Positions 45,909 through 64,000 are shown, counted from the stretch's first letter. The stretch: 64,000 nt of DNA from Spirochaetia bacterium (GCA_034520965.1 JAXHMY010000003.1:544001-608000); one strand, 5' to 3'. Notes: generated by a model not told the origin, from the sequence alone. Program-made: numbers and translations.

Positions 45909-46887
45909 TTACACATACAAATGGCACTTCACCACAGAACCGTCGGAAGTCTCTACACTGGGCGGTTCTGTTTCCTCGCATATTTTTCCAATTTTACGAG
46001 GACAACGAGGATGGAATCTACAGCCATGTGGCGGGTTGATCGGGCTCGGCACTTCTCCATGCAACACTTTTCTCTTCGGACCCTCCGGTTCCAATCGAGG
46101 TATCGAATCCAACAGGGCTTTGGTATAGGGGTGTTTGGGATTGGAAAAAAGAGTTTTTGTGTCGGCATTTTCCATAATCCAGCCCAGGTACATTACAGCT
46201 ACCCTATCGCTCACATGTTTCACCACACTCAAATCGTGGGCAATAAAAAGGTATGAAAGGTTAAGTTTCTCCTGTAAGGATAACAGTAAATTTATAATTT
46301 GAGCCTGTATGCTCACATCCAAAGCCGTTACCGGTTCATCACAGATAATAAACTCAGGGTCCACCGAGAGGGCGCGTGCAATGCCAACCCGCTGCCGCTG
46401 TCCTCCGGAAAGCTCGTGGGGATAGCGGTTGATGAAGCGTTTGGGTATGCCGGTCATATCCATTACTTCCAGCAAGCGGTCCTCGTAGTCTTTCCGATAA
46501 AGATACTTGTGAATATGAAAGGGCTCGCTGATGATCTGCCCGACAGTCTTTCGACGGTTGAGGGAAGTGCTGGGATCCTGAAAGATCATCTGAATACTGC
46601 GTCGAAGCACTTTCTCATTCTTGCGGTTTACTCCAAATACAGTTTTGTTCTTATATAGCACTTGTCCCTCGGTGGGCTGCAGTCAAATTTGCGATGAGCC
46701 TCCCAACAGTAGACTTGCCTGAACCCGACTCCCCCACCAGGCCGAGGGTCTGGCCGCGTCCAAGAGAAAAACTCACCGAATCTACGGCCTGCACACTCCT
46801 GCGATCAAAAATCTGGGAAAACCAATCTCCCCCTACGGGAAAATGTTTTTTCAAATCTCTTACCGACAATAGTTGTTCATTCGGCAT
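45909..46887 (-). CDS. Oligopeptide ABC ATPase (DppF-like), frameshift near 46665
   Basis: [17 protein letters not shown] and GCRFHPRC motifs. Confidence 0.9.
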
Positions 46888-47864
46888 AATCGAGCTCCCT
46901 TGCGCGGATACAGGCTACCTTATGTGATGCATACAGCTTCCTCCAAACCGGGATCGGTTCCATTACACTCGTCCTTGGCATACACACAACGAGGTGCAAA
47001 ATTGCATCCCGGAGGAAGATTTATCAGGTCGGGCACTTCACCCTTAATCGAGAAGAGATTATCAGTAACCGCCTCATCAATACGCGGAATCGAGCGCATG
47101 AGGCCACGTGTGTAGGGATGCAGCTGTCGCTTAAACACATCTTTTACCGTTCCCTGTTCAATTATTCTTCCCGAATACATCACCGCTATTTTATCGCAGC
47201 TATTAGCCACTACTGACAAATCGTGGGTTATGAGTATAATGCCCATGTCCAGTTCATGTTTAAGTGAATCGATCAGTTCAAATATCTGCGCCTCAATGGT
47301 CACATCCAGAGCAGTGGTTGGCTCATCGAGGATCAGCAGTTTCGGGTTGGCGCTGATAGCCATGGCAATTAACACCCGCTGTCGCATTCCACCGCTAAAC
47401 TCATGCGGATAGTTCCCGTAGCGTTTATGGGGTTCGGGAATTCCCACCAATTCAAGCAGCTCTATTACTCGTTTTTTCAGCTGCTCCTTCGTTAACTTGG
47501 TATGATAGCGCAAAACCCGGCGTATCTGGTCACCAACAGTAATAGTAGGATTAAGCGAGCTGAGGCTGTCCTGAAAGACCATGGCAATACTGCCCCCTCG
47601 AATGGAAGTCATTTCGTTTTCGCTCTTTTTCAGTAAATCCTCATCCTCGAAAAAGATGCTTCCGCTCTCGATTCTACCAGGATTCTCGACCATCCCCATT
47701 ATTGTCATTGCCGTGACTGTCTTTCCGGAACCGGATTCTCCCACAATACCAAGGGTCTCTCCCTTCTTTAGTGTGAGGGTTGTTCCGTCCACCGCTCGCA
47801 CCACACCATATTCCGTATAAAATCGAGTAAACAGGTTTTCCATATGCAACAAATTTTCACTCAT
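46877..47864 (-). CDS. Oligopeptide ABC ATPase (DppD-like); C-terminal frameshift near 46930
   Basis: [16 protein letters not shown] and GCNFAPRC motifs; HKVAC tail lies in an adjacent frame. Confidence 0.9.
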
Positions 47865-47877
47865 GCTTCCATCCTGC

Positions 47878-48843
47878 TCATTGCTGAATTCTACGGGATT
47901 GCCGCGGATCCAAAGAATCCCGCAGCCCATCTCCCAGAAAGTTAAATCCGAGAATAGCTGTCGAGATAAAGAGCCCCGGCACCACTGCATACCACCAACT
48001 TCCACTAAAGAGAAAATCCCGGGATTCGTTCAACATAACCCCCAAACTCGCATGCGGGGGCTGCAGCCCCAATCCAAGAAAACTAAGTGAAGCGCTTATC
48101 AATACCGTTTCAGCCATCATTAATGAGGCCTGGACCAAAATCGGGGGGATTGTATTTATAAAAATTTCTTTGACGATTATTCGAGTATCCGAGGCCCCGA
48201 TCACCTTGGCCGCAGCCACATAATCTTCGCTCACCTCCTGCAACACTACACTCCGCATTACCCGTGCAAAGCGGGGGGAGTAGGTAATAGCGATTACCAT
48301 CATGATTTTGAACATGTTCGAAACGGAAACCCCGAAAATAACCGTTTCCCCTATGCCGAAGGCTCCGATCAATGCAATCGCCAGCACTATCGCCGGAAAG
48401 GAGAGCATTATATCCACCACCCGCATAATAAGCTCGTCTATCCAGGTACCGCGGTGGTATCCTGCCAGAGCGCCCATCACCACTCCCAAAAGAAAAGAAA
48501 TTCCGATTGCTCCCACCGCCAGATTTAGCATTGACCTGGTTCCGTAGAAAGCCCTGGACAAAATATCGCGGCCATATCTGTCGGAGCCCAGTAGAAACAA
48601 GTGACCATCTTCGCTTCTCTCCAGAGGAGGCAAAGGATTATGCTCTCCCGCGGGAGCTTTAAACTGCTCTACCGGATTTACCGGAGACAGCAGGGGTGCA
48701 AACAGAGCGATAATAATAAACACCAGTACAATGCTTCCGCCTATTACCGAGAGCCTGTTTTTACTGAAATTTTTCCAGATTTCCTTGACGACTCCACGGT
48801 GGCGGGCAGCGGTCAACTGGACAGTTGCTTTTGCTTGATTCAT
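47878..48843 (-). CDS. Oligopeptide ABC permease (DppC-like)
   Basis: LGSDRYGRD, SLSFLGLG and GDGLRDSLDP motifs. Confidence 0.92.
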   Translation of the reverse strand: MNQAKATVQLTAARHRGVVKEIWKNFSKNRLSVIGGSIVLVFIIIALFAPLLSPVNPVEQFKAPAGEHNPLPPLERSEDGHLFLLGSDRYGRDILSRAFYGTRSMLNLAVGAIGISFLLGVVMGALAGYHRGTWIDELIMRVVDIMLSFPAIVLAIALIGAFGIGETVIFGVSVSNMFKIMMVIAITYSPRFARVMRSVVLQEVSEDYVAAAKVIGASDTRIIVKEIFINTIPPILVQASLMMAETVLISASLSFLGLGLQPPHASLGVMLNESRDFLFSGSWWYAVVPGLFISTAILGFNFLGDGLRDSLDPRQSRRIQQ

Positions 48844-48855
48844 TTCACTATTCTC

Positions 48856-49818
48856 CTACTCAGAACTGGTGTACTGGATCCGCGGGTCGAGTTTTGCATA
48901 AGTAAGATCCACTCCGAGGTTCACCACTATTCTCACCAGTACAATGATGAGTACCACCGCCTGTATCACCGGAAAGTCTCGTCGAAATACCGCGTTCAAC
49001 ACTAAATTACCGATTCCAGGTAGCCGAAACACACTCTCGGTTACTACTGAGCCCCCCAATAAATATCCGATCGAGTTGCCTATTACAGTAACCACCGGTA
49101 TCAGTGCATTCTTCACGATATCCCGGACAACCACGTCCGACCTTTTAATGCCCATCGCACGGGAAGTACGCACATAATCCTTACTCATCACATCGAGCAT
49201 CGACGAGCGCATCATTCGCATAACAATTGCCGAGTATGATGAGCCGAGGGCGAGGCCCGGCAGCAGCATCCTTTGTAAATTCGGGCCCAGCCCATCGCTT
49301 AGAGGAACAAAACCTCCGGCTCCCCAACTTTTCATGAATATCACACCAAACAGGAGGATTAATAAAATACCCTTGAAAAAATTTGGTATCGATATGCCTA
49401 CCAAGGCGAAGACCCTGGCTGCATGATCGATGGGTTTGTTTTGTTTAAGAGCCGAGATAATGCCGGTGGGAATTGCAATCAGCAGGGCCACCACCATTGC
49501 AAAGACTACCAGCTCCAGGGTAACCGTGAAGCGCTCGGCAATCAGATTCGCCACCGGAGCTCCTCTTTGAACACTAATTGACATCCCGAAATCACCGCGC
49601 AGTACATTTCCAAGCCACATAAAATATTGCTCGTGCAGTGGCAGGTCGAGTCCCAACCGTTGCTGCATCTTTTCAACTAAGGCTTGGTCTTGAATCGGAC
49701 CCAACATAACGCGGACGGGATCTCCCGGGGCAATATGCACCAATAAGAAGATGATAATACTGGCGACGATGAGGGTCGGAATTGCCATCATAAATCTTTT
49801 TAAAATATAGATGCTCAC
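48856..49818 (-). CDS. Oligopeptide ABC permease (DppB-like)
   Basis: PGDP, GLDLPL, RDFPVIQ and LDPRI motifs; GTG start after AAGGAG. Confidence 0.92.
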   Translation of the reverse strand: MSIYILKRFMMAIPTLIVASIIIFLLVHIAPGDPVRVMLGPIQDQALVEKMQQRLGLDLPLHEQYFMWLGNVLRGDFGMSISVQRGAPVANLIAERFTVTLELVVFAMVVALLIAIPTGIISALKQNKPIDHAARVFALVGISIPNFFKGILLILLFGVIFMKSWGAGGFVPLSDGLGPNLQRMLLPGLALGSSYSAIVMRMMRSSMLDVMSKDYVRTSRAMGIKRSDVVVRDIVKNALIPVVTVIGNSIGYLLGGSVVTESVFRLPGIGNLVLNAVFRRDFPVIQAVVLIIVLVRIVVNLGVDLTYAKLDPRIQYTSSE

Positions 49819-49881
49819 CAATAACTCCTTTGAAGGCTGAGACGGGAACATATTCCCCGTCTCAGCCGCTGCGTATTGCTT

Positions 49882-51570
49882 TTATTCGGAAAAGTTGTTG
49901 ATATGACGAAGATTCACAATACCGATTGAACTTAGGCCGTCACCATAGCCTTTTAAGTCTTGGTCCCATGCAAACAGGCTGTCTACTATCATCAGGTCAA
50001 TTCCGACTACCTTTTCAACAACCATTTCCTGCAGTTCCCACACCATCTCTTTACGCTTCTCTGGGTCGGTTTCCTTGATGGCCTGCTTATGCAGCTCAAC
50101 CCACTCCTCGTGGCCAGGAACACTTTCGTGATACAGGTCACGTAGATCTGGGGCGGCATGGTGCCAATGGTTCGGGCTCCAGTTGTTCCAAGGGTAGTTA
50201 AATCCCAAATAGGACAGTACCGAGAAATCACTGAATACCCAGTCTTCAACCAGAATGTCCCAGTCGTTGCTCTCGTACATGGTGTCAAACAGGGTGGCTT
50301 TATCCACCGGAACTACCTCGGACTCGACACCGTATTTGCGCAGCTGCTCTTGTATAATGGTAGCCATATCGACAAACCATTGGGCATTAGTAGCCTGCAT
50401 CTCAAAACTCAAACCTCCATCTGCAAATCCGGCCTTCGCCAGATGCTCCTTTGCCAATTCCGGATCATAGGGTTTCATTTTTTTCAATTTTGGAGAGGTC
50501 CACTCACTATCAGGGTACCAGGGTCCCTTGGCAATAGTTGCCATGCCGTAGAAAAGCTGGTCGGCAATCGCCTCTCGATTGATGGCATGATAGAGAAACT
50601 TCCTTACGTGATACGCCCTTTCTATCTCCTCCTCATCACCAATTTGGTCTTCGGAAATTCCGATCGGCGGATTGCTCAGGTTAAGATAGAGTATCTGCAG
50701 CGCGGTTCCCGGCATTCTTTTGGTTTCAATGTCGGGCATATTCTTTATCGTTTCATAATCTCTGAAAGGGACCTTATCAATTATATCAACCGAGCCTGAA
50801 ATCAAAGCCGAAAGCTTGGCCGAAGGATCGCCTATAAACTCAAAAATCACCTGATCCGCCTGCTGCACATCCTCGTCCCAGTAGTTTTCGTTTTTCTCCA
50901 GAACAATTCTAGAGCCGCTTCGCCAGCTGGCAAACTTATAGGGTCCGGTTCCAATTGGAGCTCTGGTTAAGTCGGTTCCCGGCTTTCCACCTACCCCCTT
51001 TTCCTCGGTGCGTTTACCATGGGAGCCCTCCGGCACAACTCCGAACATAGAAGTTCCCGCCCACATTGCCAGTGCGTGGGGTGTAGGACTCTCGAAGGTA
51101 ACTTCAAGGGTATAATCGTCCAGTATGTTTATATCGCTTACCGGACCGATCTGCCCCTTCCACGGAGCATCGTTATCCTCATTAAGCTGCCACTCCAGGT
51201 TATACTTTACATCCGCCGCGGTAAAATCACTACCGTCGTGGAACTTTACCCCCTCACGCAAGTACAAAATAAGAGTCTTGTTTTCGTTTTTCCATTCGTA
51301 CTCCTTTGTAAGCGAGCCTTCCGTAGTCAATTGATTCTCTTCGTTGTACTCGATTATCGGGTCGTAGATATTTTTGAGCAGATGGTACGAGCCGGTATCT
51401 GTCGCAGTAGCGGGGTCTAGATCCCAGGGCTCAGTAGAAATTCCTACCTTCAGTTCCGTCAACTCGTCTTGCCCCTCAGCTGTGCCGCTTGCTTCGCCTT
51501 GCCCCCCGGCAAAGCTGAAAGCAAGCACACCCAATGACAGAATAAGGATACTCACAACTCTTCTTAACAT
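49882..51570 (-). CDS. Family 5 ABC substrate-binding protein (DppA-like)
   Basis: LREGVKFHDG and PIGTGPY motifs. Confidence 0.92.
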   Translation of the reverse strand: MLRRVVSILILSLGVLAFSFAGGQGEASGTAEGQDELTELKVGISTEPWDLDPATATDTGSYHLLKNIYDPIIEYNEENQLTTEGSLTKEYEWKNENKTLILYLREGVKFHDGSDFTAADVKYNLEWQLNEDNDAPWKGQIGPVSDINILDDYTLEVTFESPTPHALAMWAGTSMFGVVPEGSHGKRTEEKGVGGKPGTDLTRAPIGTGPYKFASWRSGSRIVLEKNENYWDEDVQQADQVIFEFIGDPSAKLSALISGSVDIIDKVPFRDYETIKNMPDIETKRMPGTALQILYLNLSNPPIGISEDQIGDEEEIERAYHVRKFLYHAINREAIADQLFYGMATIAKGPWYPDSEWTSPKLKKMKPYDPELAKEHLAKAGFADGGLSFEMQATNAQWFVDMATIIQEQLRKYGVESEVVPVDKATLFDTMYESNDWDILVEDWVFSDFSVLSYLGFNYPWNNWSPNHWHHAAPDLRDLYHESVPGHEEWVELHKQAIKETDPEKRKEMVWELQEMVVEKVVGIDLMIVDSLFAWDQDLKGYGDGLSSIGIVNLRHINNFSE

Positions 51571-51596
51571 TTCACATCCCTCCTTTTTATTTTAAT

Positions 51597-52349
51597 CTAC
51601 TTCCTGTCTTGAGATTCACTCATAGCTTCATCATAGGAAGTAGTAAACCACTCAGTCTCCGGATCCCTTTTTTTAAGGAAATCCGCTGCATGCTCCTTTC
51701 CTCGATACAGCTCTTTCTCCAGCACCAATAAAGCTGTTTCCAGATCTCTACTCGAAATTGCGTCAAAGAGCTCCGTCAGCTCTTTATGGGTAATAACCGA
51801 ATCGTCCCGGTATTTAAGGGATATCATTCCCAGCTTAAGGAACCTATCCATGTAATTCTCCAGGAGCGAATACAAATGAGTATTTCCGGAGATACGGGGA
51901 AAAAACAGGTGAATACTTTTTTCAAGCTCTAGAAAATTACGCTTGTCGCTCTCCCAATTCCTGAATTGAATTGCCTGTGCGTACTTTCCCATCTGGTTGA
52001 GTCGTTTTTTCATATCCCTTAAATACTTGTCCGTAATCAGTGGTAAGGCCAATTTAATAGCCAGTTTTTCATTTTCCAGACGTACCGGCAACAATTCGAG
52101 GTACTCCTCGTAGGAGATATAATTTACCCGAACGGACTTGCCGGCTTTCGCAACCCAACCGTCTCTGAGCAGCAGCTCAAGCGCCTGTCGTACGGGAGTT
52201 CTACTGACCGTCAGCATTCCCGCCAATTTTCTCTCATTTAGAACCTCACCCTGTTCAAGCTGATCGAACAGAATTGCATTTTTAATTTTCTTGTAAACCG
52301 CATACTTGATTGGTTCCGGCCGTTTAATAGCAAAATCTTCAAAGTCCAC
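51597..52349 (-). CDS. GntR/FCD transcriptional regulator
   Basis: VSRTPVRQAL HTH; SGN in the FCD domain. Confidence 0.88.
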   Translation of the reverse strand: MDFEDFAIKRPEPIKYAVYKKIKNAILFDQLEQGEVLNERKLAGMLTVSRTPVRQALELLLRDGWVAKAGKSVRVNYISYEEYLELLPVRLENEKLAIKLALPLITDKYLRDMKKRLNQMGKYAQAIQFRNWESDKRNFLELEKSIHLFFPRISGNTHLYSLLENYMDRFLKLGMISLKYRDDSVITHKELTELFDAISSRDLETALLVLEKELYRGKEHAADFLKKRDPETEWFTTSYDEAMSESQDRK

Positions 52350-52584: not shown

Positions 52585-54354
52585 CTAGGGAGCTTGCCCG
52601 GCAGCATCAAAGTTAACTACCAACCTTTTGAACGCTTCCGGGTCTTCAATTATCAGGGCATGGCCGATATTATCAAAGACCTTTAGTTCGGCCTTTAGAG
52701 CTTCAGCTGTGCGCCGGGCGTGGTCATCACTAATAATCGGATCAAGAGCGCCCCGAATCACTAAAGCTGGGGTGTTAAAACCGGCGGCAGCTTCACTATA
52801 ATCAAACTCGGCCAGAGCAAGGGCATGGTTGAAGTAGGCCTCCCGGTTCATCAGCAGTGCCTCTTTAGTTAAGAGGCTATGCAGGCGTCGATCCTCAGAG
52901 CGGCTGCCCATCACCTTGCCTATGGCGCTCTTCAGTACTCCGTAATGGCGGCGCAAGGCTTCAATACGGGCTTCCGAATCATCCCTTAGGGGCAGGCCGT
53001 CTATCGGTGCCGAATCGATCAGCAGCATCCGGCGGACTTTTTTGGGATACCGTATTGCCAGGGACATAGCAACCGCTCCTCCAAAGGAGTGGCCGGCCAC
53101 ATAACAGGGTCCAAGCCCTAACTGGTCGATGAAAGCGGCCACGTGGTCAGCATAGGTATCGATATCGTCGGTGGTCTCAATGCGGTCGGAACGGCCAAAG
53201 TTCATCAGGTCTATCGCCACAGTGCGGTAGCCGGGCACATCCATAACTTCCCGAAACCACTGGTACGAGCCGGTATTTCCGTGAATGTACAGCAGGACAG
53301 GACCTTCTCCCTGTTCCACATAATACATCTGCTTCCCCTCGATGGTTTCGACAAAGCTGCCCTTTACCGGCTTGAGGCGGTGAAGAAAACGCAGAACCGC
53401 CATATAGGGCACTTGCATCTTGCGGTTCCACATTATGTAAAGCTCGGTAGCAATACCGCTCGGAAGGGCAATCACAAAAATAATAAGCAGTATTCCATAG
53501 ATGAGGGTTAGTGAACCCGGCGGTACTAATTCTTCCAGCACCAGTGCCGGAAGCCCTACAATAATGAAGGATCCAATCAACCCGCCCTCAAGGAGAATCG
53601 CCCCGCCGATGATAATTATCAGCAAGAGGTCGATTGCCGCCATCAGGCCAAAGGTTACCGGTTGAATTACCCCCTGGGTAACCGCATACATCGAGCCGGC
53701 CAGGGCGCAGAAGACGGCACTTACAATAAATGCCTGCAGCTTGTTGGCGGCAAGGTTAGTGCCGTAGGAGCGCGCCGCCACCTGGCTGTCACGAATCATA
53801 CGAAACTTTACCCCGAAGGGCGATTTGAGAATTACCAGCCCGATAGCGTAGAACAACAGAAATAGGACGGTCATGAGAACAAAGGTGGCCACATCTCGAA
53901 TCGGCCCCGACCTCGTAAAGCTAAGGATATGGGGAATGTTGTATACCGGGTTGGGAAAGGGCATGGCACGAATGGCCTGTTCCATACCAACTCCGAATGC
54001 GATGGTGGCGATGGCCAGATAATAGCCGCGCAACCTCAGCGCCGGCAGGCCAATCAGCAGGGCAAACACCGTTGCAATGAGCAGCCCGATGAGAGTTCCC
54101 AACAGCATACCCCCGTATACCCCAGGGAGGAGCTCGGTAAAAATAGCTGTGGAGTAGGCGCCGATAGCCATGAAGGCGGCATGTCCCAGAGAAAGTTGGC
54201 CGGTATTACCGATAATGATCACCATGCCCATACCGGCGATTGCCCAGACTAGCACAAGCGACAAATTTCCCAGAGTATAGGTTCCACCGGTCAGTAGAAA
54301 TGCGAACAGCCCTGCCGTCAGTATCCCGCTCCCAAGTAAGAATATCCGTTTCAC
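52585..54354 (-). CDS. LivM-type ABC permease fused to a C-terminal alpha/beta hydrolase
   Basis: GQLSLGHAAF and LRLRGYYLAIAT, then HGNTGS, GHSFGG, GALDP and GH. Confidence 0.88.
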   Translation of the reverse strand: MKRIFLLGSGILTAGLFAFLLTGGTYTLGNLSLVLVWAIAGMGMVIIIGNTGQLSLGHAAFMAIGAYSTAIFTELLPGVYGGMLLGTLIGLLIATVFALLIGLPALRLRGYYLAIATIAFGVGMEQAIRAMPFPNPVYNIPHILSFTRSGPIRDVATFVLMTVLFLLFYAIGLVILKSPFGVKFRMIRDSQVAARSYGTNLAANKLQAFIVSAVFCALAGSMYAVTQGVIQPVTFGLMAAIDLLLIIIIGGAILLEGGLIGSFIIVGLPALVLEELVPPGSLTLIYGILLIIFVIALPSGIATELYIMWNRKMQVPYMAVLRFLHRLKPVKGSFVETIEGKQMYYVEQGEGPVLLYIHGNTGSYQWFREVMDVPGYRTVAIDLMNFGRSDRIETTDDIDTYADHVAAFIDQLGLGPCYVAGHSFGGAVAMSLAIRYPKKVRRMLLIDSAPIDGLPLRDDSEARIEALRRHYGVLKSAIGKVMGSRSEDRRLHSLLTKEALLMNREAYFNHALALAEFDYSEAAAGFNTPALVIRGALDPIISDDHARRTAEALKAELKVFDNIGHALIIEDPEAFKRLVVNFDAAGQAP

Positions 54355-55280
54355 GCCTTCCTCCCGACTTTCCCTGCAAAGAGCCCCATAGGTTTGAATA
54401 CCAGAATCAAAATGATGAGAAAAAAGATTATAGCTGTCTCATATCCATCCAAGGCCGGAACGATATCAATCAGCCGTTCCAGAACACCAATCATGAGTCC
54501 TCCCCAAATCGCTCCGAATAAACTGCTGAAGCCACCCAAAACTGCCGCGGTAATACCCAGCAGCTGTGTGTTCATTAGCATGGTCGGATGCACCCGGGTG
54601 ATAGGGGCAATCAAGATACCGACCACCACCGCCAGGGTAATCGAGAGGCCCCACACAATCGAGTCGACACGATTGGTATTGATGCCCACCGACTGAGCCC
54701 CCACGGGGTCCTGTCCCCGGGCTCGAATTGCCAGACCTATCTTTGTATATTTCATGAGGGCGGCCATGGACACCGAAATTACCAGGGCAATCAGCATCAC
54801 CGCAATATCGTTCCGCCGAAACACAACCCTTATTCCCTCAAACAAACCGGCCCCCTCAAATATAAAGGGAGGCCCCGGCAGGAGCCGTGGAAAGGATTCA
54901 TAATCCGGGCTCCAGATCAGGTTAGCCGCCCCTTCAAATACCAGCAGCAGACCCAGGGTTATCATAAGCATGCTCGCCGGGGAGACGTGCTTCACCCGGC
55001 GCATGAGCAGTAGATCGATTAAAACACCAAATACCGCCCCTGCTATTAGCCCCACCGGTATCGCCGCGAACAGTGCTAACCGGCCATCCAGTAAATTAAG
55101 ACCGATAAATGTCTGCATCGCACTTAAGGTAATCAGTACACTCACCATAGCCGAGTACCCGTGACTGAAGTTCAGGGTACCCGCCGATCGAAAGATCATC
55201 GCAATCCCAAAGCCCATCAACCCGTAGAGTGCACCCTGTGGAATGCCTATTGTTATTGCTTGAAGTAACTCACTCACCAT
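54351..55280 (-). CDS. LivH-type ABC permease
   Basis: LNFSHG, TKIGLAIRA, AAVLGG and KPMGLF motifs. Confidence 0.9.
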   Translation of the reverse strand: MVSELLQAITIGIPQGALYGLMGFGIAMIFRSAGTLNFSHGYSAMVSVLITLSAMQTFIGLNLLDGRLALFAAIPVGLIAGAVFGVLIDLLLMRRVKHVSPASMLMITLGLLLVFEGAANLIWSPDYESFPRLLPGPPFIFEGAGLFEGIRVVFRRNDIAVMLIALVISVSMAALMKYTKIGLAIRARGQDPVGAQSVGINTNRVDSIVWGLSITLAVVVGILIAPITRVHPTMLMNTQLLGITAAVLGGFSSLFGAIWGGLMIGVLERLIDIVPALDGYETAIIFFLIILILVFKPMGLFAGKVGRKA

Positions 55281-55286
55281 CTGCTC

Positions 55287-55988
55287 CTACATGCCCAAAT
55301 ATGCTTTGCGCAGGCTGTCGTCCTTGAGTATCGCATCGGCATTTCCGGAATGGACGATGCTGCCGTTCTGCATAACATACGCCCGGTCGCTAATCGACAG
55401 CGCCTTGGTCGCATTTTGCTCAACCAACAACACCGACATCTTTTCACGCAGGCCCTTAAGAACCCGAAACATCTCATCAACGATCACCGGAGCTAAACCA
55501 AGAGAGGGCTCATCGAGGAGGAGAACCTCAGGCGAGGCTACCAGTGCCCGCCCAACGGCGAGCATCTGCTGCTCTCCACCGGACAAAGAGCCGGCCAGCT
55601 GGCGGCTTCGTTCACGAAGAATCGGAAACAGCTCATATACCGTGTGTACATTCGCCGCAAAATCACCGCGGACGAAGGTTCCCAGCCGCAGGTTCTCCTC
55701 TACGTTAAGCTCGGGAAATATGCGCCGATTTTCCGGACAAAGCACCATCCCTTTGGTGGTGGGCTCCGTAGAGTTCTTCCGTTTGAGGGCTTCCCCCTTA
55801 AGCTCGACAAGTCCACGGCTTTTGACAATTCCCATTAGCCCAAACAGGGTTGAGGTCTTTCCGGCGCCGTTAGCCCCGAGTATGGAAACAATCTCACCCT
55901 TCTCCAGACTGAAGGAAATTCCCTTTACTGCGTGTATCGGCCCATAAGAGACCTTTAAATCTGATACTTTAAGCACTGGTTTCCTCAC
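55287..55988 (-). CDS. LivF-type ABC ATPase
   Basis: GANGAGKT, LSGGEQQM and DEPSLGLAP motifs. Confidence 0.93.
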   Translation of the reverse strand: MRKPVLKVSDLKVSYGPIHAVKGISFSLEKGEIVSILGANGAGKTSTLFGLMGIVKSRGLVELKGEALKRKNSTEPTTKGMVLCPENRRIFPELNVEENLRLGTFVRGDFAANVHTVYELFPILRERSRQLAGSLSGGEQQMLAVGRALVASPEVLLLDEPSLGLAPVIVDEMFRVLKGLREKMSVLLVEQNATKALSISDRAYVMQNGSIVHSGNADAILKDDSLRKAYLGM

Positions 55989-56733
55989 CTAAATACACCC
56001 GAATAACCTCCGGATTGTTGGCTATCTCATTCGGAGTTCCCTCCGCGATCTTCTTCCCAAAACTCATCACTGAAATACGATCCGATATTTTCATTACAAT
56101 ATTCATGTCATGCTCAACCAGCAGAATACTCATGCCTTGCTCACGACAGAGATTCGCCAGAATTTCATCCAGCTCTTCGGTCTCCTGATGGGTCAGTCCG
56201 GCCGCCGGTTCATCGAGCAGCAGCATCTCCGGCTCCGAAATAATGGCCCTTCCAATCTCCACCCGCTTCTGCATCCCGTAGGAAAGGTTCTCCGGTATGT
56301 TGAACAGGACCGAAGTAATTCCCATTGTCTCGGCTACCGCCATAATGCGCTCTTCCACTTCCTGGGCAAACTTCTTATGGGCTCCCAAAAAAATAGAAGG
56401 AAAGGCCTTTCGAAAATGAAACGCATACCCGGCATACAGATTTTCATAGACAGTCATCTTGGTAAACAGCTGCAGGTTTTGAAATGTACGTGCGATTCCC
56501 TTATGAATCATTTTATGGTCCGGAAGGCGGGTTATATCTTTCCCCTTAAAAAAAACCTTGCCCTTAGTTCTCGGTCCTATACGCGTAATGGAGTTAAAGA
56601 GGGTAGTTTTCCCGGCCCCGTTCGGTCCTATCAGGGCATGAATTGTTCCCTTTTCGATTATCATCGAAAAATCATCAACCGCAACCAAACCGCCGAATAC
56701 AACCCCGACGTTGGCTATTTCGAGCATTTTCAT
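55969..56733 (-). CDS. LivG-type ABC ATPase
   Basis: GPNGAGKT, RTFQN, LSYG and DEPAAG motifs. Confidence 0.93.
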   Translation of the reverse strand: MKMLEIANVGVVFGGLVAVDDFSMIIEKGTIHALIGPNGAGKTTLFNSITRIGPRTKGKVFFKGKDITRLPDHKMIHKGIARTFQNLQLFTKMTVYENLYAGYAFHFRKAFPSIFLGAHKKFAQEVEERIMAVAETMGITSVLFNIPENLSYGMQKRVEIGRAIISEPEMLLLDEPAAGLTHQETEELDEILANLCREQGMSILLVEHDMNIVMKISDRISVMSFGKKIAEGTPNEIANNPEVIRVYLGEETSA

Positions 56734-56830
56734 ACTTTATTGCCTCGTATTTTTATAAAGTGCGGGGTGCGAACACGCCGCACCCCGCCCAATTTCGCTC
56801 TTCAAATTCCGCAACACAAATCCAAACTTA

Positions 56831-58048
56831 TCAGTTTGGGTCTTTATACTCGATCCACTCACTAACCGGAAACCATTCGCCCTTTTGAACTTCCATAACG
56901 TACATACTCTGCTTACCAAGTCGGCAGGTGGTATCTTCAGGATCATGCTCACTATAGGTAACACCCAGTGCAAGATATCCGTCCCACCCATTCATACTCT
57001 CGAGGGCGTCTACCAGAGCTTCCCGGGTTAAATCTTCACCTGCACGTCTTGCTGCTTCGGTAAAAATTTCGGCGGCAACCATACCTGCTACACCATAGGC
57101 ATTCGGCACAGCCCCTTCTTCGCCAACATAGTCGGCGTACCACTGCCAGGGCGGGAAATCCGGGTTGTCAAAGTCGGCCAGTACCCATGCCATGGACTGA
57201 ACATTTTCCATTACCTCGGCTCCCAGCGCATCTATAAGCGTTTGGTCGGCGTTGGCGTAGGTTAACAGTTTGGTCGGTTTGGTCAAACCAAACTCATATG
57301 CCTGTTCAAGAAATTGGTCACTCTGAGGGCGAAACAGTACGGTCATGATCCCGTCCACATCGGCACTTTCAAAACGGCTGATAGCCGTTGAAAAATCGGT
57401 ATCTCCGCTTTCAACTGAAATTGCCTCTACGATCTCCGCATCGGGATACATCTCGATGGTTTCCATCATCGAATCGTAGGCATCCTGTCCATCCTCTGCT
57501 GCCCTGTAAAGGACACCGAGACGCTTATGGCCAAGCTCTTCTACCAAGTAGTTGACCATTAGGTTTCCTTCCAAGAGGTAATTAGGCTGGAAGGGAAACA
57601 CATATTCTTTAGGCGGTACTGCAAGTTCGGTAGCTCCTCCGCCCTGGTACACAAAGGGTACCCCCCGATCGTTCAAATAATCCATAACCGCCAATACGTT
57701 GGGCGAACCGAGGCTTCCGACCATTGCGAACACTCCATCGCGTTCCACCATCCGGCGGGTTAATGTAGTGGTGCTCGAAGGATCAAACTGATCGTCCGCC
57801 ACTTGCAGGTTCACCTTGCGTCCGTGAATACCACCCTCTTTATTCACATGGGCAAAATAAGCTTGCATACCCTCTGCCAAGGGAGTTCCAATACTGGCTA
57901 CCGGCCCGGATAGAGCCTGGGTACTTCCAATAAATATCTCATCTTCACTTACTCCCGGCGTACCTTCCTGCTGACCGCCGCCGAATACCGGCAGAAGCAA
58001 GACAAGACAAAAAACTACGCTTAAGAACATCATTTTTCTATTTCTCAT
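56831..58048 (-). CDS. LivK-fold ABC substrate-binding protein
   Basis: PGVSEDEI.IG, LSGP and NKEGGIHGRK motifs. Confidence 0.9.
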   Translation of the reverse strand: MRNRKMMFLSVVFCLVLLLPVFGGGQQEGTPGVSEDEIFIGSTQALSGPVASIGTPLAEGMQAYFAHVNKEGGIHGRKVNLQVADDQFDPSSTTTLTRRMVERDGVFAMVGSLGSPNVLAVMDYLNDRGVPFVYQGGGATELAVPPKEYVFPFQPNYLLEGNLMVNYLVEELGHKRLGVLYRAAEDGQDAYDSMMETIEMYPDAEIVEAISVESGDTDFSTAISRFESADVDGIMTVLFRPQSDQFLEQAYEFGLTKPTKLLTYANADQTLIDALGAEVMENVQSMAWVLADFDNPDFPPWQWYADYVGEEGAVPNAYGVAGMVAAEIFTEAARRAGEDLTREALVDALESMNGWDGYLALGVTYSEHDPEDTTCRLGKQSMYVMEVQKGEWFPVSEWIEYKDPN

Positions 58049-58189
58049 ATTCTCTCCTTTTATAAAACTAAAAACTAATAAAAACTCACTGAAACTCGGT
58101 CTTCACCGATTCTTTTTCGATGCACTTTCAAGGTGCAGCCGGAGCCCCGCGGATATCCGCAGGGCAGCCGCCCGCATCATAACACTTTT

Positions 58190-59569
58190 TTAGAAGTTCA
58201 CCTTAACACCAGCAGAAATCTGCTGTTTGGGATCGCCAGATTCTATATCGTTCCAAGAAAACGTGTTCCAGTCAAATTGCCGCGCAATACCAGCATTGTC
58301 TTCATTAAGAAATCCGTATGTAGCATACAGAGTTGCCTGTTCCGTTACAGCGTATTCAACACTCACATCTGCAAAATAGCCGGTTCGCGCCTCACGCATT
58401 ATGGAATCCGTAAAACCATGTACTTCTTCAAGTGCTTTCCTTTTATACTCAAAGAAGTGATACATACCACCGGCCACAATAGCGTTCAGGCCGGGGCTTA
58501 CTTCGTAATTTACCCGCGCAGATGCCAATGCCTGATGGTCATCCTCATAACCTGCCCCACCCATATTAAATACATTGGTCGGGTTTACGGTGTTACGCCC
58601 GGAATTGCCGATCATGCTCGAGAAGGTATCGAACCCCGGCTCTACCAGGGCTCCATTGAATACAAACAGTCCCTGCGCCTCGACAACCAGTACCTGAGGC
58701 TGCAGATCGCTGACCTTAGAAAAATCGAGTGCAGGACGCAGCATCGCTGCAAAGTTGAAAGTGTTCCATAATCCTCCACTTTCTGTATTTATTCCACCGA
58801 AAGTACCATCCTCGTTTAGGTCCCCAAATGTATCACGGTCATTGTCTATGGGGAACATAGTGTGTGCGGCAAACTTAAGGTCGATTGGGCCTGCCGGACC
58901 TTCCATGAAGGGACCAACAATGGCAACACTGTCTAGCAGGAACGGAGGAGTTGCTGTGGCATCGCCGACAAAGTAGCCGCCCAAGAGTCCCCAGAGGATC
59001 TTGCTTTGCAGATTATAGCCTACCGCCGCTGCAGCAAACAGGTGACCGTTACTGGAAACGTCTTCGATTCCAACATCCTGGCGGAGGTCGTACAGGGCTA
59101 ACAGGCTCAGAGGGCCACCGAGAACCTTGTCCAGATCGTACTGGTAGGCAATCCGATCGCGACGGTCGCCGGAGGTAGTAAGGCCGTGGCCCCAATTCGC
59201 TTCTTGGCGGCCTACACTCAATTTTCCACCGAGAAAGGGCATCTCCACATAGCCGATATCAAGGCCGAAATTTTCTGTCGAGGAACTATCATCCCACTCG
59301 GTAACTCCTCCGCCGCCGGGTTTACGGTGGTCACCGCTCCAGTACTGGTCGTAGAGGCGCAGGCCTACATGGACCTTTACATCGCCCCCCAGGTCAAAGG
59401 TCGGTGCGATGCGCAGGCTCTGGTAGAATCCCTGAATATCGTCCGCAGTCTCTCCCTGCATAAAACCCTGCAGCTCATAGGAACCGCTCCAGTCCGCGTC
59501 TATGGCCGATACAGTCATCGGCACAAGCATGGCTATCACGATTGCTGCCACTAATAAACTCTTTTTCAT
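58190..59569 (-). CDS. Putative outer-membrane beta-barrel porin
   Basis: Signal peptide, amphipathic G/Y/F-rich strands, terminal GVKVNF. Confidence 0.7.
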   Translation of the reverse strand: MKKSLLVAAIVIAMLVPMTVSAIDADWSGSYELQGFMQGETADDIQGFYQSLRIAPTFDLGGDVKVHVGLRLYDQYWSGDHRKPGGGGVTEWDDSSSTENFGLDIGYVEMPFLGGKLSVGRQEANWGHGLTTSGDRRDRIAYQYDLDKVLGGPLSLLALYDLRQDVGIEDVSSNGHLFAAAAVGYNLQSKILWGLLGGYFVGDATATPPFLLDSVAIVGPFMEGPAGPIDLKFAAHTMFPIDNDRDTFGDLNEDGTFGGINTESGGLWNTFNFAAMLRPALDFSKVSDLQPQVLVVEAQGLFVFNGALVEPGFDTFSSMIGNSGRNTVNPTNVFNMGGAGYEDDHQALASARVNYEVSPGLNAIVAGGMYHFFEYKRKALEEVHGFTDSIMREARTGYFADVSVEYAVTEQATLYATYGFLNEDNAGIARQFDWNTFSWNDIESGDPKQQISAGVKVNF

Positions 59570-59614
59570 CTTAGAAACCTCCTGTAATCTTCATCTTTTA
59601 ATTTTTCTGATATG

Positions 59615-59690
59615 TGAATCTATTCTCACCCTAAGTTTGTAAATCGTCAAGTTTTTTCTATAATTTTTTTGTAACATGAATCATCTCTCA
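59615..59690 (-). promoter_or_regulatory. Promoter TTGACG-17-GAGAAT flanked by two TGAATCnnnTCTCA boxes
   Basis: Boxes at 59615-59628 and 59677-59690. Confidence 0.65.
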
Positions 59691-59694
59691 CAGT

Positions 59695-60432
59695 TTACAA
59701 AGAAAAACCGCCGTCTACTCGCAGCACCTGGCCTGTTATAAAAGAGGCATCGTCGCTTGCCAGGAAGGTAACTGCATTGGCTACCTCCTGCACTTCCCCC
59801 AAACGCTTCAACGAGGTGCGGGAGGTAAAGTTTTCAATAAGCTTATCCGGTACGGTCTCGATCATGGGAGTGTTGATAAATCCCGGAGCCACCGCATTTG
59901 CCCGTACGGCCGCGCCCTTTCGTGCAAACTCCCTAGCCCAGCTTTTGGCCATCGCGACAACACCGGCTTTAGTTGCGGCGTAATTAGTCTGTCCCATATT
60001 CCCGTCAAGGCCTACGATACTCGAGATATTGACAATAGAACCGCTGCCTTGCTGCATCATGAGGGGACCGATTTCACGGGCCATGTTAAAACTCCCCTTT
60101 AAGTTAATGCTGATTACCGCTTCCCAGGCCTCGTCATCCATTTTATGAATAAGAGAATCCTTGGTTATTCCCGCATTATTGATCAGCACATCAATGCGCC
60201 CGTCACTCTCCGTCACTTCTTTGACGAAGCTGCGTATGGCCTCTGGGTCAGTTACATCAAGTTTTACCCCTTTTAAGCCGCTTCCCTCTTTTTCAACCGC
60301 CTCCAGTGCCGAAGCATCGACATCGCAGGCGTAAACCTTTTCAGCCCCGGCGGCAACAAAGCTTTCGGCAATAGTTCTACCGATTCCCTTAGCTCCACCG
60401 GTGACTACACAAATTTTTCCGTGAAGATCCAT
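59695..60432 (-). CDS. FabG/PhaB-like 3-oxoacyl(-CoA/ACP) reductase
   Basis: TGGAKGIG, NNAGIT and GQTNYAATK motifs. Confidence 0.9.
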   Translation of the reverse strand: MDLHGKICVVTGGAKGIGRTIAESFVAAGAEKVYACDVDASALEAVEKEGSGLKGVKLDVTDPEAIRSFVKEVTESDGRIDVLINNAGITKDSLIHKMDDEAWEAVISINLKGSFNMAREIGPLMMQQGSGSIVNISSIVGLDGNMGQTNYAATKAGVVAMAKSWAREFARKGAAVRANAVAPGFINTPMIETVPDKLIENFTSRTSLKRLGEVQEVANAVTFLASDDASFITGQVLRVDGGFSL

Positions 60433-60464
60433 CCATTTTCCTCCTTTTTTTCTATTAAATCAGA

Positions 60465-61484
60465 TTAGTATTCGGGATAATCTCCCCAATGAACCACGGT
60501 AGAGGCCCATACAAAGCCCAGTCCGGCCCCGACCATAACAATCTTGTCCCCATCGTTTATTTTTCCCTGTTCCACACCCAATTCAATTGAGTGAACCTGA
60601 TCGTTCTGCCCCAAATGACCGTACTCATCCAGATAAGTGGTCTGGCTCGCCTTTAAGTTAAGCTCTTTAAGTACCGCATCATGGGCGGAGCGCTTGAAAT
60701 GCAGAATTGCCAGATAATCGATGTGCTCGTCAGTAAGCCCGCCGGAGCGCTTCAGTGATTCGCGTATCACATGATAAAAGTTAGGCATGGTACGTTCACC
60801 GAGTTTTTTCTTGAAAGACTCCACATCCCTTACCACAAAATGCGCCTTCTCGGCATCTTCCGACTTGGGAGGCCAGGCTTTAGCCCCTAGAACAGGAACC
60901 ACACAATCTTCGGCAAAACTGCCGTCGCCCCGGAAGGATGACCCCAGAACCACATTGTGGTTGTACCCCTTCTCCAGCAAAACCGCCGCCCCGGAGGCAC
61001 CGATATCCGCCATAAAGCTGGTTTCCTTTACGCTTAGATCGATAAGGTCCACGTTGCGATATCCACTTACCAGCAGCACACGGTGTAACTCGTCCTTGGC
61101 AAGGAGCATGGATTTAGCCACATCAAGGCCGGCCATCATAGAACCGCACATCGCCTCCATATCGAAGGACCAGGCATTTTCGGCCCCCAGTTCATGGGCA
61201 ACCTTCAGACCGGCAAGCCAGCAGGGATAATCCTTATGCTGCCCCCCGTTCCAAATAACCAAATCGATATCCCCGGGGTCGATTCCCGCCTGCTCTACCG
61301 CCCTTCTCGCCGCCTGAAGTCCCATATAGCTGGGGGAATCCTCAGGGCCGGGAATCGGCTTTTGCTTCACCCCGAACTTACGGGCAATTACATCCTCGGG
61401 TATACCCGTTTTTTCTCCTATCTCAGCTGCAGTCATTACTCTTGTGGGTAAGTAAGTACCTAAGCCCCGAATGCCTATATTCAT
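60465..61484 (-). CDS. KAS III-like condensing-fold enzyme with a Cys-His-His triad
   Basis: EAMCG, ILHFK, YGHLG and GAGLG motifs. Confidence 0.85.
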   Translation of the reverse strand: MNIGIRGLGTYLPTRVMTAAEIGEKTGIPEDVIARKFGVKQKPIPGPEDSPSYMGLQAARRAVEQAGIDPGDIDLVIWNGGQHKDYPCWLAGLKVAHELGAENAWSFDMEAMCGSMMAGLDVAKSMLLAKDELHRVLLVSGYRNVDLIDLSVKETSFMADIGASGAAVLLEKGYNHNVVLGSSFRGDGSFAEDCVVPVLGAKAWPPKSEDAEKAHFVVRDVESFKKKLGERTMPNFYHVIRESLKRSGGLTDEHIDYLAILHFKRSAHDAVLKELNLKASQTTYLDEYGHLGQNDQVHSIELGVEQGKINDGDKIVMVGAGLGFVWASTVVHWGDYPEY

Positions 61485-61506
61485 GCATCACCTCAAATCT
61501 AAGTGT

Positions 61507-61552
61507 TGAATCATCTCTCAATTAGTATAGAAGCCTTTGTAAAATCGGTCAA
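61507..61552 (-). promoter_or_regulatory. Promoter TTGACC-17-TATACT with a TGAATCATCTCTCA box at the start site
   Basis: Near-consensus promoter; box at 61507-61520. Confidence 0.7.
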
Positions 61553-61673
61553 GTTTTTTCTTTCATCAATTTTTTCGGCTATTTTGCCCCCTTCTAAGGC
61601 CAAATGTTAGGGGTACCGTACCTATACAAGGCTTGATCCTTTAAAATTACCTGGTTTTAGCGAAAGTTTTTCC

Positions 61674-61727
61674 TTGCCAGGAAACAGAAACAAATTTATA
61701 ATAAATTGTATTATGAATCACTTCTCA
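61674..61727 (+). promoter_or_regulatory. Promoter TTGCCA-17-TATAAT with a TGAATCACTTCTCA box
   Basis: Near-consensus promoter; box at 61714-61727. Confidence 0.7.
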
Positions 61728-61741
61728 TTATTGGAGGAATT

Positions 61742-62742
61742 GTGGAACATACAGGAATCAAGGGACTGGGGCTTTACGTACCCGGAGAACCTATCGACAA
61801 TACCGAACTGCAGAGGCTTGCCGGTATCGAGTTTAATGTAGACAAAATAGAAAACAAAATCGGTATAAAAAGACGTCATATTGCAAAGCTGCGTAACACC
61901 GGCGAAACTACCGCCGATTTTGCTAGCAATGCCGCCCGGGAGGCCATCGAAGACGCGGGGATCGATCCGCAGGAGGTGGCCTATTTTATCGTCGGAACCG
62001 ATACTCCGGAATACATCTCCCCTTCCACCGCCATGCTCGTCCAAGGCCGCATCCAGGGGGGCCGAAAATATACCGGCTCCTTTGACATAGGCAGCTCGTG
62101 CGCGGGTTTCGTGACCGCCTATGATGCTGCATCCCGAATGCTTGCCGGGATCCCGAGGCTCGTTACGCGGTGGTAGTAGGGGTGTATAACATGCCCGCCT
62201 ATGTGCGTGACGGAGATGCCTTCGGCTATTCTATCTTTTCCGATGGAGCGGCTGCTTTTGTACTGGAAAAGCGTGATACCCAGAGCTATCTGGGAAGCCA
62301 GTTTATTACCGACGGTACGCAGTGGGACTATGTAGGGGTCTACGCCGGCGGAACAAGGATGCCGGTGACCCATAAGAGGCTAGAGGAGGGGGAATACGGC
62401 CTGCAGCTGCTGCAGCGCCTGCCGGGAGACCGCAACGTGAAGCTATGGCCGCCATTGGTCAAGCACCTTTTACAGAAAACCGGGGTAGAGCTCTCTGCGG
62501 TGGATCACCTCATTTTCACCCAGATCAACCGATCGGTTATCGAGCAGGTGATGGATATCCTCGAACTGCCGATGGAAAAGACCACCACCGTTATGGATAA
62601 ATACGGCTACACCGGTTCAGCCTGCGTTCCGATGGCCTTCTACGATGCGGTAAAAGCCGGCCGCATTAAACGGGGCGATACGGTTATGTTTGTGGCCTCC
62701 GGAGCCGGTTTAGCTGTGGGCAGCAATCTGTTTGTATATTAA
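61742..62742 (+). CDS. Second KAS III-like enzyme, non-canonical triad, frameshift near 62150
   Basis: SSCAGF, FSDGAAA, FTQIN and YGYTG motifs; GTG start after GGAGG. Confidence 0.85.
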
Positions 62743-62756
62743 AGGAGTTACAGGTT

Positions 62757-64000
62757 ATGAAAGACTGGAATAAAGATTACCAGCAACGACTCATTACTAC
62801 TGAAGAGGCGGTACGGCATATTAAATCTAATGACGATATTATCGTCGGCCAGTGTGCCTCTGAGCCTCAGGGGCTGATGTCGAAAATTCACACCATGCGT
62901 GACAAGGTGGAAGGGGTCAGAGTGTTTAGTGTGCTCACCCTTCAGGCCTACGATTTCTACATGAAACCTGAAATGGAAGGCCACTTTGAACTGGCAAGCT
63001 GGTTTCACGCTCCCGGTTCCCGCAAAGCCCTCAAGGCCGGACTAAGCACGGTAACTTACGTACCGAACATGCTTCACCGGGCGGCCATGGACCGTATACA
63101 GGCGAGGAGGCCGAATATTTTCTTTGGCACCTGCACCCCGCCGGATTCTAAAGGCTTTGTCTCGCTTTCCCTGGGAATTACCTATGAGAAGGACGTGCTG
63201 GAGGCGGCGGAACTGGTAGTGCTGGAGGTAAACAAGAACCTCCCCCGCACCTACGGGGACACCCATGTACACGTGGACGATGTGGACTACTTTGTCGAAA
63301 ATCATCAGGAACCACCTACCCTGCCCATGCCGGAACCGGACGAGACCGATCAGGCCATTGGAAACTACGTGGCCGAGCTGGTGGATGACGGCTCTACCAT
63401 CCAGCTGGGAATCGGAAACATCCCCAACGCGGCTGCCCTGGCCCTGCAAGGCAAGAAGGATCTGGGAGTACACACCGAAATGGTAGTTGATTCGATGGTA
63501 GATCTCCATGAACGGGGGGTTATTACCAATAAGAAAAAGAGCCTGTTTAAAGACAAATTTGTCTGCACCTTCGCTTTTGGTTCAAAAAAACTGTACGAAT
63601 GGCTCGATGATAACATGGCGGTGGAGTTTCAACGCGGCTCCTGGGTCAACGATCCGGCGGTTATCAGACAAAACTCCAGAATGGTCTCTCTTAACACCTG
63701 TTTAAATGTGGATATGACCGGACAGGTGGCCAGCGAATCAATCGGCACCACCCAGTATTCTGGTACGGGAGGGCAGACAGATACCGCGGTGGGAGCCAAA
63801 GAGGCCTATGACGGACTCGGCAAGTCGATTATTGCCTGCCGTTCAACTGCCAAGAACGGTACGCTCAGCACAATCACTCCCACCCTTCGTGAAGGTACTG
63901 CGGTTACCCTGCATCGGAGCAATGTCGACCATATCGTCACCGAGTACGGAATAGCCTACATGCGAGGACGAACGGTGCGGGAGCGGACAAGAAACCTAAT
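62757..64000 (+). CDS. Acetyl-CoA hydrolase/transferase family (4-hydroxybutyrate CoA-transferase-like), runs off the window
   Basis: Read manually: MKDWNKDYQ.., QLGIGNIP, GVHTEM and GQVASESIG..QYSGTGGQ. Confidence 0.9.
   Translation, partial: MKDWNKDYQQRLITTEEAVRHIKSNDDIIVGQCASEPQGLMSKIHTMRDKVEGVRVFSVLTLQAYDFYMKPEMEGHFELASWFHAPGSRKALKAGLSTVTYVPNMLHRAAMDRIQARRPNIFFGTCTPPDSKGFVSLSLGITYEKDVLEAAELVVLEVNKNLPRTYGDTHVHVDDVDYFVENHQEPPTLPMPEPDETDQAIGNYVAELVDDGSTIQLGIGNIPNAAALALQGKKDLGVHTEMVVDSMVDLHERGVITNKKKSLFKDKFVCTFAFGSKKLYEWLDDNMAVEFQRGSWVNDPAVIRQNSRMVSLNTCLNVDMTGQVASESIGTTQYSGTGGQTDTAVGAKEAYDGLGKSIIACRSTAKNGTLSTITPTLREGTAVTLHRSNVDHIVTEYGIAYMRGRTVRERTRNL

Follow-up and report, generated by a model that had tools for sequence, protein, structure and literature searches.

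The 64,000-nucleotide stretch of a Spirochaetia bacterium genome analysed here (hereafter the window; G000:C3:544001-608000, from a source genome of 3.35 Mb that is 86% complete) holds, from position 52585 onwards, a cluster of 13 genes that share one conserved operator-like motif. The cluster codes for a Liv-type ATP-binding cassette (ABC) importer, a porin-like protein, PhaZ-like esterases, two proteins with the fold of β-ketoacyl synthase III (KAS-III), termed KAS1 and KAS2, a short-chain dehydrogenase/reductase (SDR), a coenzyme A (CoA) transferase, a thiolase and a tandem TetR. Judged from sequence, it is reasonably probable that the cluster imports short esters of (R)-3-hydroxybutyrate (3HB), in the form of poly-3-hydroxybutyrate (PHB) fragments of other cells, and ferments them via CoA esters to acetate. 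An initial annotation of the window had proposed the uptake and catabolism of hydroxyacyl oligoesters such as PHB; the catabolic, CoA-linked part of that proposal is supported by the data below, while the substrate and the KAS-III reaction are put forward here as predictions.

Conservation of the cluster and its operator-like motif

All genes listed in the initial annotation were recovered, the porin by its Atlas neighbours and the others by Pfam and NCBIfam profile searches of the window proteins; that annotation had also predicted that the cluster runs past the window. It continues to window-equivalent position 67422, with a thiolase (C3:608116-609312; 463 bits with TIGR01930 against a cut-off of 241), a tandem TetR (C3:609511-610638) and a stand-alone PhaZ-like esterase (C3:610652-611422), all on the plus strand like the CoA transferase. 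A check for acyl carrier protein (ACP) or fab genes just outside the window found none there, and the thiolase instead. The housekeeping genes of fatty-acid synthesis lie elsewhere in the genome, accBCDA-fabH-fabD-fabG-fabF at C3:143.7-153.3 kb and the ACP gene at C2:263360, so that the cluster is a paralogous system. That no ACP, FabD, FabZ or FabF is in view had been taken as an argument against fatty-acid synthesis, and the catabolic, CoA-linked and ACP-independent reading was upheld by all tests run. Among the conserved neighbours of the KAS gene in the two sets of loci described below, no ACP, FabD or FabF family was found.

Set 1 comprises the best 80 of 209 KAS1 relatives in GTDB genomes (spirochaetes, Thermotogae and Holophagaceae, the nearest being Spirochaetaceae metagenome-assembled genomes), and set 2 the best 80 of 194 relatives from metagenomes, near-duplicates included, of a clade sharing about 39% identity with KAS1. 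The CoA transferase and the tandem TetR are each present in 65 of the set-1 loci and the SDR in 54. Within the 38 long set-1 loci (at least 17 kb) the counts are 37 for an esterase, 35 for the CoA transferase, 30 for the thiolase, 28 for the SDR and 26 for KAS2, and in set 2 the CoA transferase occurs 52 times, the SDR 45, KAS2 35 and the thiolase 27 times. The core is kept across the two KAS clades while the transporter changes: Liv ATPases are found in 50 of the 80 set-1 loci, and a sodium:solute symporter in 24 of the 80 set-2 loci (among L180-L232). These 24 loci also carry a lipoprotein-like gene and two genes (532 and 476 aa) of no Pfam family.

The shared operator proposed in the initial annotation, TGAGAGRTGATTCA, has four copies in a 2.1-kb stretch, located at the predicted promoters of the porin, KAS1 and KAS2. 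The copy at 59615..59628 shares bases with the −10 box predicted for the porin/ABC promoter (TTGACG-17-GAGAAT), and that at 59677..59690 lies upstream of this promoter. For KAS1 the predicted promoter is TTGACC-17-TATACT, and the third copy, at 61507..61520, is situated 3 nt past its −10 box; the fourth, at 61714..61727, follows the predicted KAS2 promoter (TTGCCA-17-TATAAT) and precedes the ribosome-binding site. The promoter and terminator scan was overall at chance level (22 versus 19 and 20 versus 21). The genome contains 10 matches to TGAATCNNYYYTCA, including the four cluster copies. In set 1 the motif is present within 250 nt upstream of the KAS1 orthologue in 71 of 79 loci (one of the 80, which has no upstream sequence, was omitted), compared with 1.4 on average and at most 7 for shuffles, while altered spacings occur in only 2/79 and 3/79 loci. 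With a matrix built from 58 sites of other genomes, the four window sites rank first to fourth genome-wide, the fourth being tied with an unrelated site. Across 62 host genomes, of which G302 and G368 are apparently one, the exact pattern was matched 116 times and the reversed pattern 5 times. The 80 set-2 loci contain no exact match to the motif, and the matrix scan yielded none in six haloarchaeal loci. The tandem TetR is the candidate operator-binding protein and, as inferred from co-occurrence, likely the repressor of all cluster promoters; its two unlike halves would suit the asymmetry of the operator, to which it is predicted to bind.

Thirty off-cluster matches were fetched and judged by their neighbouring genes. 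Twelve lie ahead of, or touch, the start of genes that could plausibly belong to the regulon: displaced tetR-KAS2-CoA transferase or Liv operons, a thiolase gene, three esterase genes (one recognised by its motif only) and a large open reading frame (ORF) of receptor-like appearance. Esterases are separately operator-linked in G011 and G346. In three kin genomes (L130, L137, L138) the operator is followed by a FabI gene (PRK07533) and three MaoC genes in tandem, whose products may convert 3HB-CoA to butyryl-CoA by an (R)-specific route. In a Holophaga genome an operator lies ~150 nt upstream of a 1013-aa ORF (L139:542-3583) with, by eye, the look of an outer-membrane receptor, for which no NCBIfam match was obtained at 1e-22. 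A fifth high-scoring motif in the source genome (C2:481674) was rejected as an operator since it lies in a TRAP operon, where it overlaps a ribosome-binding site. Operator-like sites in Bacillus (L111:7453) and Brevibacillus (L112:7310) likewise overlap the ribosome-binding site of a tetR gene, the product of which has a single domain homologous to each half of the double TetR; these sites may be Shine–Dalgarno coincidences and were therefore left uncounted. Next to the cluster, window positions 44709-52349 hold a GntR/FCD regulator, a peptide-type ABC operon and an amidohydrolase-like gene that is split (ORFs 45191-45883 and 44709-45191), none of them conserved with the cluster. The GntR and peptide-ABC genes were rejected as members because they lack an operator and the 80 set-1 loci yielded no gntR.

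Enzymes and transporter of the cluster

KAS1 (60465..61484, minus strand) belongs to the PRK06840 family, with 441 bits against the NF005308 cut-off of 315, and both KAS proteins fail the FabH profile TIGR00747 (123 and 170 bits, cut-off 292). Where the FabH of this genome has Cys-His-Asn, KAS1 has Cys-His-His and KAS2 (61742..62742, plus strand) Cys-Thr-Tyr (Cys120, Thr260 and Tyr290), which bears out their earlier description as atypical KAS-III enzymes. Cys113, His262, Lys264, His290 and Asp295 of KAS1 are invariant (80/80 and 73/73), and its GHLGQNDQV segment aligns residue for residue with GHLGASDQV of ChlB3 (ChlB3 283-337; His296/Asp301). The passages of PMC9573744 that deal with these enzymes give Cys113-His296-Asp301 as the ChlB3 triad and describe the related CerJ as making oxyesters from acyl thioesters. 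Since KAS1 has no FabH-type Asn and carries a ChlB3-like Cys/His-x4-Asp arrangement, oxyester thiolysis is predicted for it. A KAS1-catalysed transfer of an oxyester acyl group to CoA is the weakest step of the mechanism and a tentative assignment, which we would not yet call probable. The structure models (pLDDT 92.7 for KAS1 and 88.2 for KAS2) confirm the FabH fold of both proteins and do not discriminate function. Because FabH and OleA rank first by sequence and structure, the likeness to ChlB3 and CerJ is one of working principle only. In the Bacillus and Brevibacillus members of the family a Ser occupies the position of the catalytic Cys; the Bacillus gene (L111:10001-10996) is followed by a gene for a long repeat protein, NHL-like by eye. 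KAS2 is optional, and none was seen in the loci of Thermotogae, Bacillus or archaea; its role may be that of a second acyltransferase or of a partner subunit.

The hydrolase that the initial annotation saw fused to the transporter is the C-terminal part of a LivM-type permease (52585..54354, minus strand; BPD_transp_2 at residues 30-293, Abhydrolase_1 at 352-572), a PhaZ-like serine esterase with an HGN oxyanion motif, a GHSFG box and the catalytic Asp and His. Permease-esterase fusions occur in 8 of the 80 set-1 loci. In the esterase family, which aligns with the PHB depolymerase 8YNV, the HGN and HS motifs are kept in 48/48 sequences and the Asp and His in 47/48, one not being covered. The same entry is the best PDB match of the family profile, with 128 bits versus 106 for the next other protein, and 20 of 21 family members match i_nPHAscl (NF050089), the profile for depolymerases of short-chain-length polyhydroxyalkanoate (scl-PHA). 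Three of the five set-2 esterases scanned exceed the cut-off of 300 bits of this profile (L192, 352; L207, 416; L209, 413), and all three sit directly upstream of the KAS gene.

The remainder of the importer lies on the same strand and comprises a LivH-type permease (54351..55280), LivF- and LivG-type ATPases (55287..55988 and 55969..56733) and a Peripla_BP_6 solute-binding protein (56831..58048), so that by Pfam and NCBIfam the five-component Liv architecture is complete. The binding protein is no LivJ/LivK orthologue (77 bits against the LivJ cut-off of 477, PRK15404), and LivF, LivG, LivH and LivM are likewise under their cut-offs. Its best PDB match reaches only E=1.7e-21, and binding proteins of set-1 loci are only 23-24% alike; the predicted ligand is a short hydroxy-acid ester. 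The porin of the initial annotation, a 459-aa protein without a Pfam or NCBIfam match (58190..59569, minus strand), has Porin_4/alginate-export barrels as its Atlas neighbours (TM 0.67-0.75), and appears to be an accessory outer-membrane β-barrel, found in 3 of the 80 set-1 loci only.

An Asp at the end of strand β2 marks NAD preference in SDRs. The FabG/PhaB-like SDR of the cluster (59695..60432, minus strand) has such a residue, Asp37, which is invariant in 51/51 and 43/43 orthologues, whereas the housekeeping FabG has Ser-Arg there. We predict from sequence that it acts as an (R)-3-hydroxybutyryl-CoA dehydrogenase. Its closest PDB entries are 4NBT, 4NBU and 4NBV; the β2 Asp is shared in the 4NBT and 4NBU alignments, and a table in PMC5264612 lists these two as NAD-bound. 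The CoA transferase (62757..64000, plus strand, ending 67 nt past the window at window-equivalent 64067) is a family-I enzyme of the AcetylCoA_hydro family. Its assignment to the 4-hydroxybutyrate (4HB) type is borne out by PDB 3EH7 (E=2.5e-107), and the HTEM motif is found in 65 of 67 aligned matches, the other two not being covered. At ~22 loci an SCP2-like/archaeal thiolase-domain protein (PRK07516/PRK06064-like, below the cut-offs; e.g. L088:4982-6238) takes the place of the canonical thiolase.

The proposed pathway and its alternatives

The distribution of the family and the gene content of its hosts bear on the substrate. PRK06840 is patchy: among spirochaete-phylum genomes it was found in 11 of 301, and among relatives in 7 of 40; it also occurs in Bacillus, Brevibacillus and six haloarchaeal plasmids. 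Cultured carriers include Mesotoga, Marinitoga, Oceanotoga, Salinispira pacifica and Spirochaeta dissipatitropha. A Liv-type ABC adjoins the gene in all six archaeal loci and in the Bacillus locus, and an acyl-CoA ligase and MaoC accompany it in Bacillus and two of the archaeal loci; haloarchaea are not known to have a bacterial ACP system. MaoC is also beside the KAS gene in Holophagaceae and in G064, and one locus (L246) has the order MaoC-ACAD-EtfBA-thiolase-SDR-KAS. The source genome, within its 86% completeness, gave no match for crotonase, MaoC, PhaC_N or the 4HB-dehydratase type (PF03241, which we take as a proxy for 4HB-CoA dehydratase), and only marginal ones for 3HCDH. Among the 62 host genomes crotonase was found in 19, MaoC in 24, PhaC_N in 3 and the 4HB-dehydratase type in 1; crotonase was not found in 43 of them, including 13 of the 14 high-quality hosts. 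As the crotonase, PhaC_N and 4HB-dehydratase domains were not found in most of the hosts and have no match in the source genome, full β-oxidation, PHB storage by the host itself and 4HB use are unlikely to be required, and the substrate probably arrives from outside, at the 3-hydroxy level and as an ester. That the 4HB-dehydratase type was found in a single genome favours esters of 3HB over those of 4HB. As a separate observation, G054, G064 and G068 (L132-L136) each have 3-5 class III PhaC-like genes and a divergent PRK06840 clade; five such genes scored 191-338 bits against a cut-off of 365, and in G054 one lies directly upstream of livH-livM-livG.

Reading substrate, direction and reactions from the observed gene content, conservation, motif and active-site residues, we would arrange the proteins as follows. 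Esters would enter through the porin, the binding protein and the Liv-type ABC transporter, and be trimmed by the PhaZ-like esterases, one of them fused to the permease. The CoA transferase would move CoA from acetyl-CoA to the free carboxylate; the Cys of KAS1 would then take the oxyester acyl group and hand it to CoA, giving 3-hydroxybutyryl-CoA at no activation cost. Oxidation by the NAD-type SDR would yield acetoacetyl-CoA, which the thiolase would split into two acetyl-CoA, and acetate kinase would provide ATP. Acetate kinase and FeFe-hydrogenase domains are both encoded in the source genome. Hydrogenases would be its sink for NADH, and butyrate would be that of genomes with MaoC and an enoyl reductase; as the source genome has no crotonase or MaoC match, H2 would be needed as electron sink. 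By inferred energetics, ABC import would consume the ~1 ATP net from monomer fermentation, so that oligomer import combined with thiolysis would pay better.

Several observations weigh against this proposal. The esterases of the window cluster stay under the i_nPHAscl cut-off (108 bits for the fused one, whose best NCBIfam match is this profile, and 99 for the stand-alone one) and are only 25-26% identical to the sister-clade esterases that pass it. Two further set-2 esterases also fall short (251 and 266 bits, the latter truncated), L207 and L209 are near-identical, and a PhaZ-class esterase is present in just 6 of the 80 set-2 loci. Single-sequence PDB searches put generic esterases on top, with 8YNV second and ninth. 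There is no secreted depolymerase in the cluster and no PhaC-like gene in the 38 and 40 long loci of sets 1 and 2. KAS1 still has His262, and a Foldseek search with its model places FabH and OleA nearest, not CerJ or ChlB3. The 19 hosts with crotonase include 4 of the first 5 examined, and in the host counts completeness is shown for only 17 of the 62 genomes and kin are not independent. For the SDR, stereospecificity and direction are deduced from what is known of its family, and 18 of the 30 off-cluster operator matches show no link to the pathway. The KAS2 reading frame is moreover broken by a one-base gap near 62146-62150. Since relatives at 93-99% identity, including a database protein at 96-99%, are intact and other genes of the assembly are split as well (TRAP, C2:480329-482994; FeFe hydrogenase, C1:659133-660050; acyl-CoA ligase, C8:251843-253572), which suggests indel errors across the assembly, this break is probably an assembly error; a relative's contig has one extra base at this point, and the read run nearest to the strain is without coverage there.

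That the esterases of the window cluster do not reach the depolymerase cut-off is also what would be expected if the substrate were another ester, with 3-hydroxy- or 3-oxo-acyl groups being salvaged from lipids or signals (acyloxyacyl lipids, rhamnolipid-type esters or lactones), acetyl-CoA clipped off and the shortened acyl-CoA recycled via the KAS-III proteins. The several classes of esterases and of binding proteins among the loci, the acyl-CoA ligase that replaces the CoA transferase in the Bacillus and haloarchaeal loci and the SCP2-like thiolase class speak for such a role; however, the CoA transferase and the canonical thiolase are short-chain types, true scl-PHA depolymerases fill the esterase slot in sister loci and butyrate-type reduction modules join the cluster or the regulon, and we regard this alternative as unlikely. 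A use of monomers only, 3HB or acetoacetate, would leave the esterases a side role, with the KAS-III proteins as additional enzymes of condensation or retro-Claisen cleavage, for instance for 3-oxovaleryl-CoA. CoA transferase, SDR and thiolase would suffice for this, as in Ilyobacter, which according to the relevant part of PMC10096456 converts 2 3HB to 2 acetate and butyrate, and KAS1 keeps two His and is structurally near OleA. The near-constant presence of the esterase in the long set-1 loci, its fusion to the permease in eight loci, its separate operator links and the existence of a separate thiolase in the cluster make this quite improbable.

The same enzymes might also work as a synthetic pathway that builds 3HB oligomers, or a different short hydroxy-acyl ester, out of acetyl-CoA by an ACP-independent, CerJ-like reaction, as a redox sink or secreted product. 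CerJ itself works in this sense in the portion of PMC9573744 cited above, thiolase and a PhaB-like reductase constitute the PHB synthesis route (PMC7147478) and NADH-linked reductases can act reductively. This is nevertheless highly improbable, as the transporters are binding-protein-dependent importers or sodium symporters, the esterases are co-conserved and only 3 of the 62 host genomes have PhaC_N. A branched-chain amino-acid importer with an alternative FabH/FabG pair priming branched-chain fatty acids is what the database names and the Liv-type transporter would suggest. The complete housekeeping fatty-acid synthesis elsewhere in the genome, the incomplete FabH His/Asn pair of KAS1 and KAS2, the low LivJ score of the binding protein, the conserved neighbourhoods without ACP, FabD or FabF families and the presence of the family in haloarchaea leave it barely conceivable.

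Relation to known systems and meaning

The import and fermentation of 3HB esters proposed here has parts with known relatives, in a combination that is conserved, real and uncharacterised. No description of the function of PRK06840 or of the cluster was found in full-text literature, a coverage mostly without subscription papers, and the term 'PRK06840' was unmatched there. The cluster esterases resemble the scl-PHA depolymerase PhaZ (8YNV, NF050089) in the HGN motif, the lipase box and the Asp and His positions, but are shorter, and one is fused to an ABC permease. As the source genome has no PhaC_N match, their substrate would be imported and would not come from a granule of its own. The i_nPHAscl type is that of Bacillus thuringiensis, where deletion of phaZ leaves PHB degradation active, according to the part of PMC7236355 concerned with it. 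With ChlB3 and CerJ (Cys, His-x4-Asp) and DpsC (Ser-His-His), KAS1 shares the KAS-III fold and, with ChlB3, GHLGxxDQV, and the Bacillus members share a Ser for the Cys; in contrast, KAS1 is distant in sequence (E ~1e-12 to 1e-11), keeps His262 and has no nearby carrier-protein or polyketide genes, and its proposed direction is catabolic.

A metabolic parallel may be Cupriavidus necator, for which the pertinent section of PMC7147478 reports CoA-dependent thiolysis of PHB granules by PhaZa1 and PhaP1. In both, 3HB-CoA would be released with a saving of energy and then oxidised to acetyl-CoA with NAD; there, however, a depolymerase turns over an intracellular granule, whereas here imported fragments and a thiolase-superfamily enzyme are proposed. 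The fermentation of 3HB and PHB by Ilyobacter polytropus and I. delafieldii (PMC10096456) would have acetate in common with the present pathway, plus butyrate in genomes that have MaoC and an enoyl reductase. In contrast to phaCAB, the locus and the source genome contain no PHA synthase, and the SDR is NAD-type, not NADPH-type. Its closest solved relatives, 4NBT, 4NBU and 4NBV, are reportedly FabG reductases of fatty-acid synthesis (Javidpour 2014), whereas the context of the SDR here points to an acyl-CoA dehydrogenase; some proteins labelled 'NADH-dependent FabG' may accordingly be acyl-CoA dehydrogenases with a catabolic role.

For the family as a whole, it is conceivable, although more doubtful than the role of the single cluster, that PRK06840 proteins are CoA-dependent oxyester thiolases on an undescribed route by which non-producers import PHB fragments and keep the energy of the ester bond as 3-hydroxybutyryl-CoA. 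With equal reserve, the carriers of such a route would be non-producers among spirochaetes, Thermotogae and Holophagaceae, together with Bacillus and haloarchaea, feeding on fragments from dead cells. If true, this would give a function to a widespread family misannotated under the name of 3-oxoacyl-ACP synthase and add catabolic polyester cleavage to the KAS-III fold. The enzymes leading from oligomer to 3HB-CoA would be of use in bioplastic recycling, and genes, an operator and cultured carriers would be named for an under-studied step, the consumption of PHB fragments, and the energy gained from it, in anoxic sediments and digesters.

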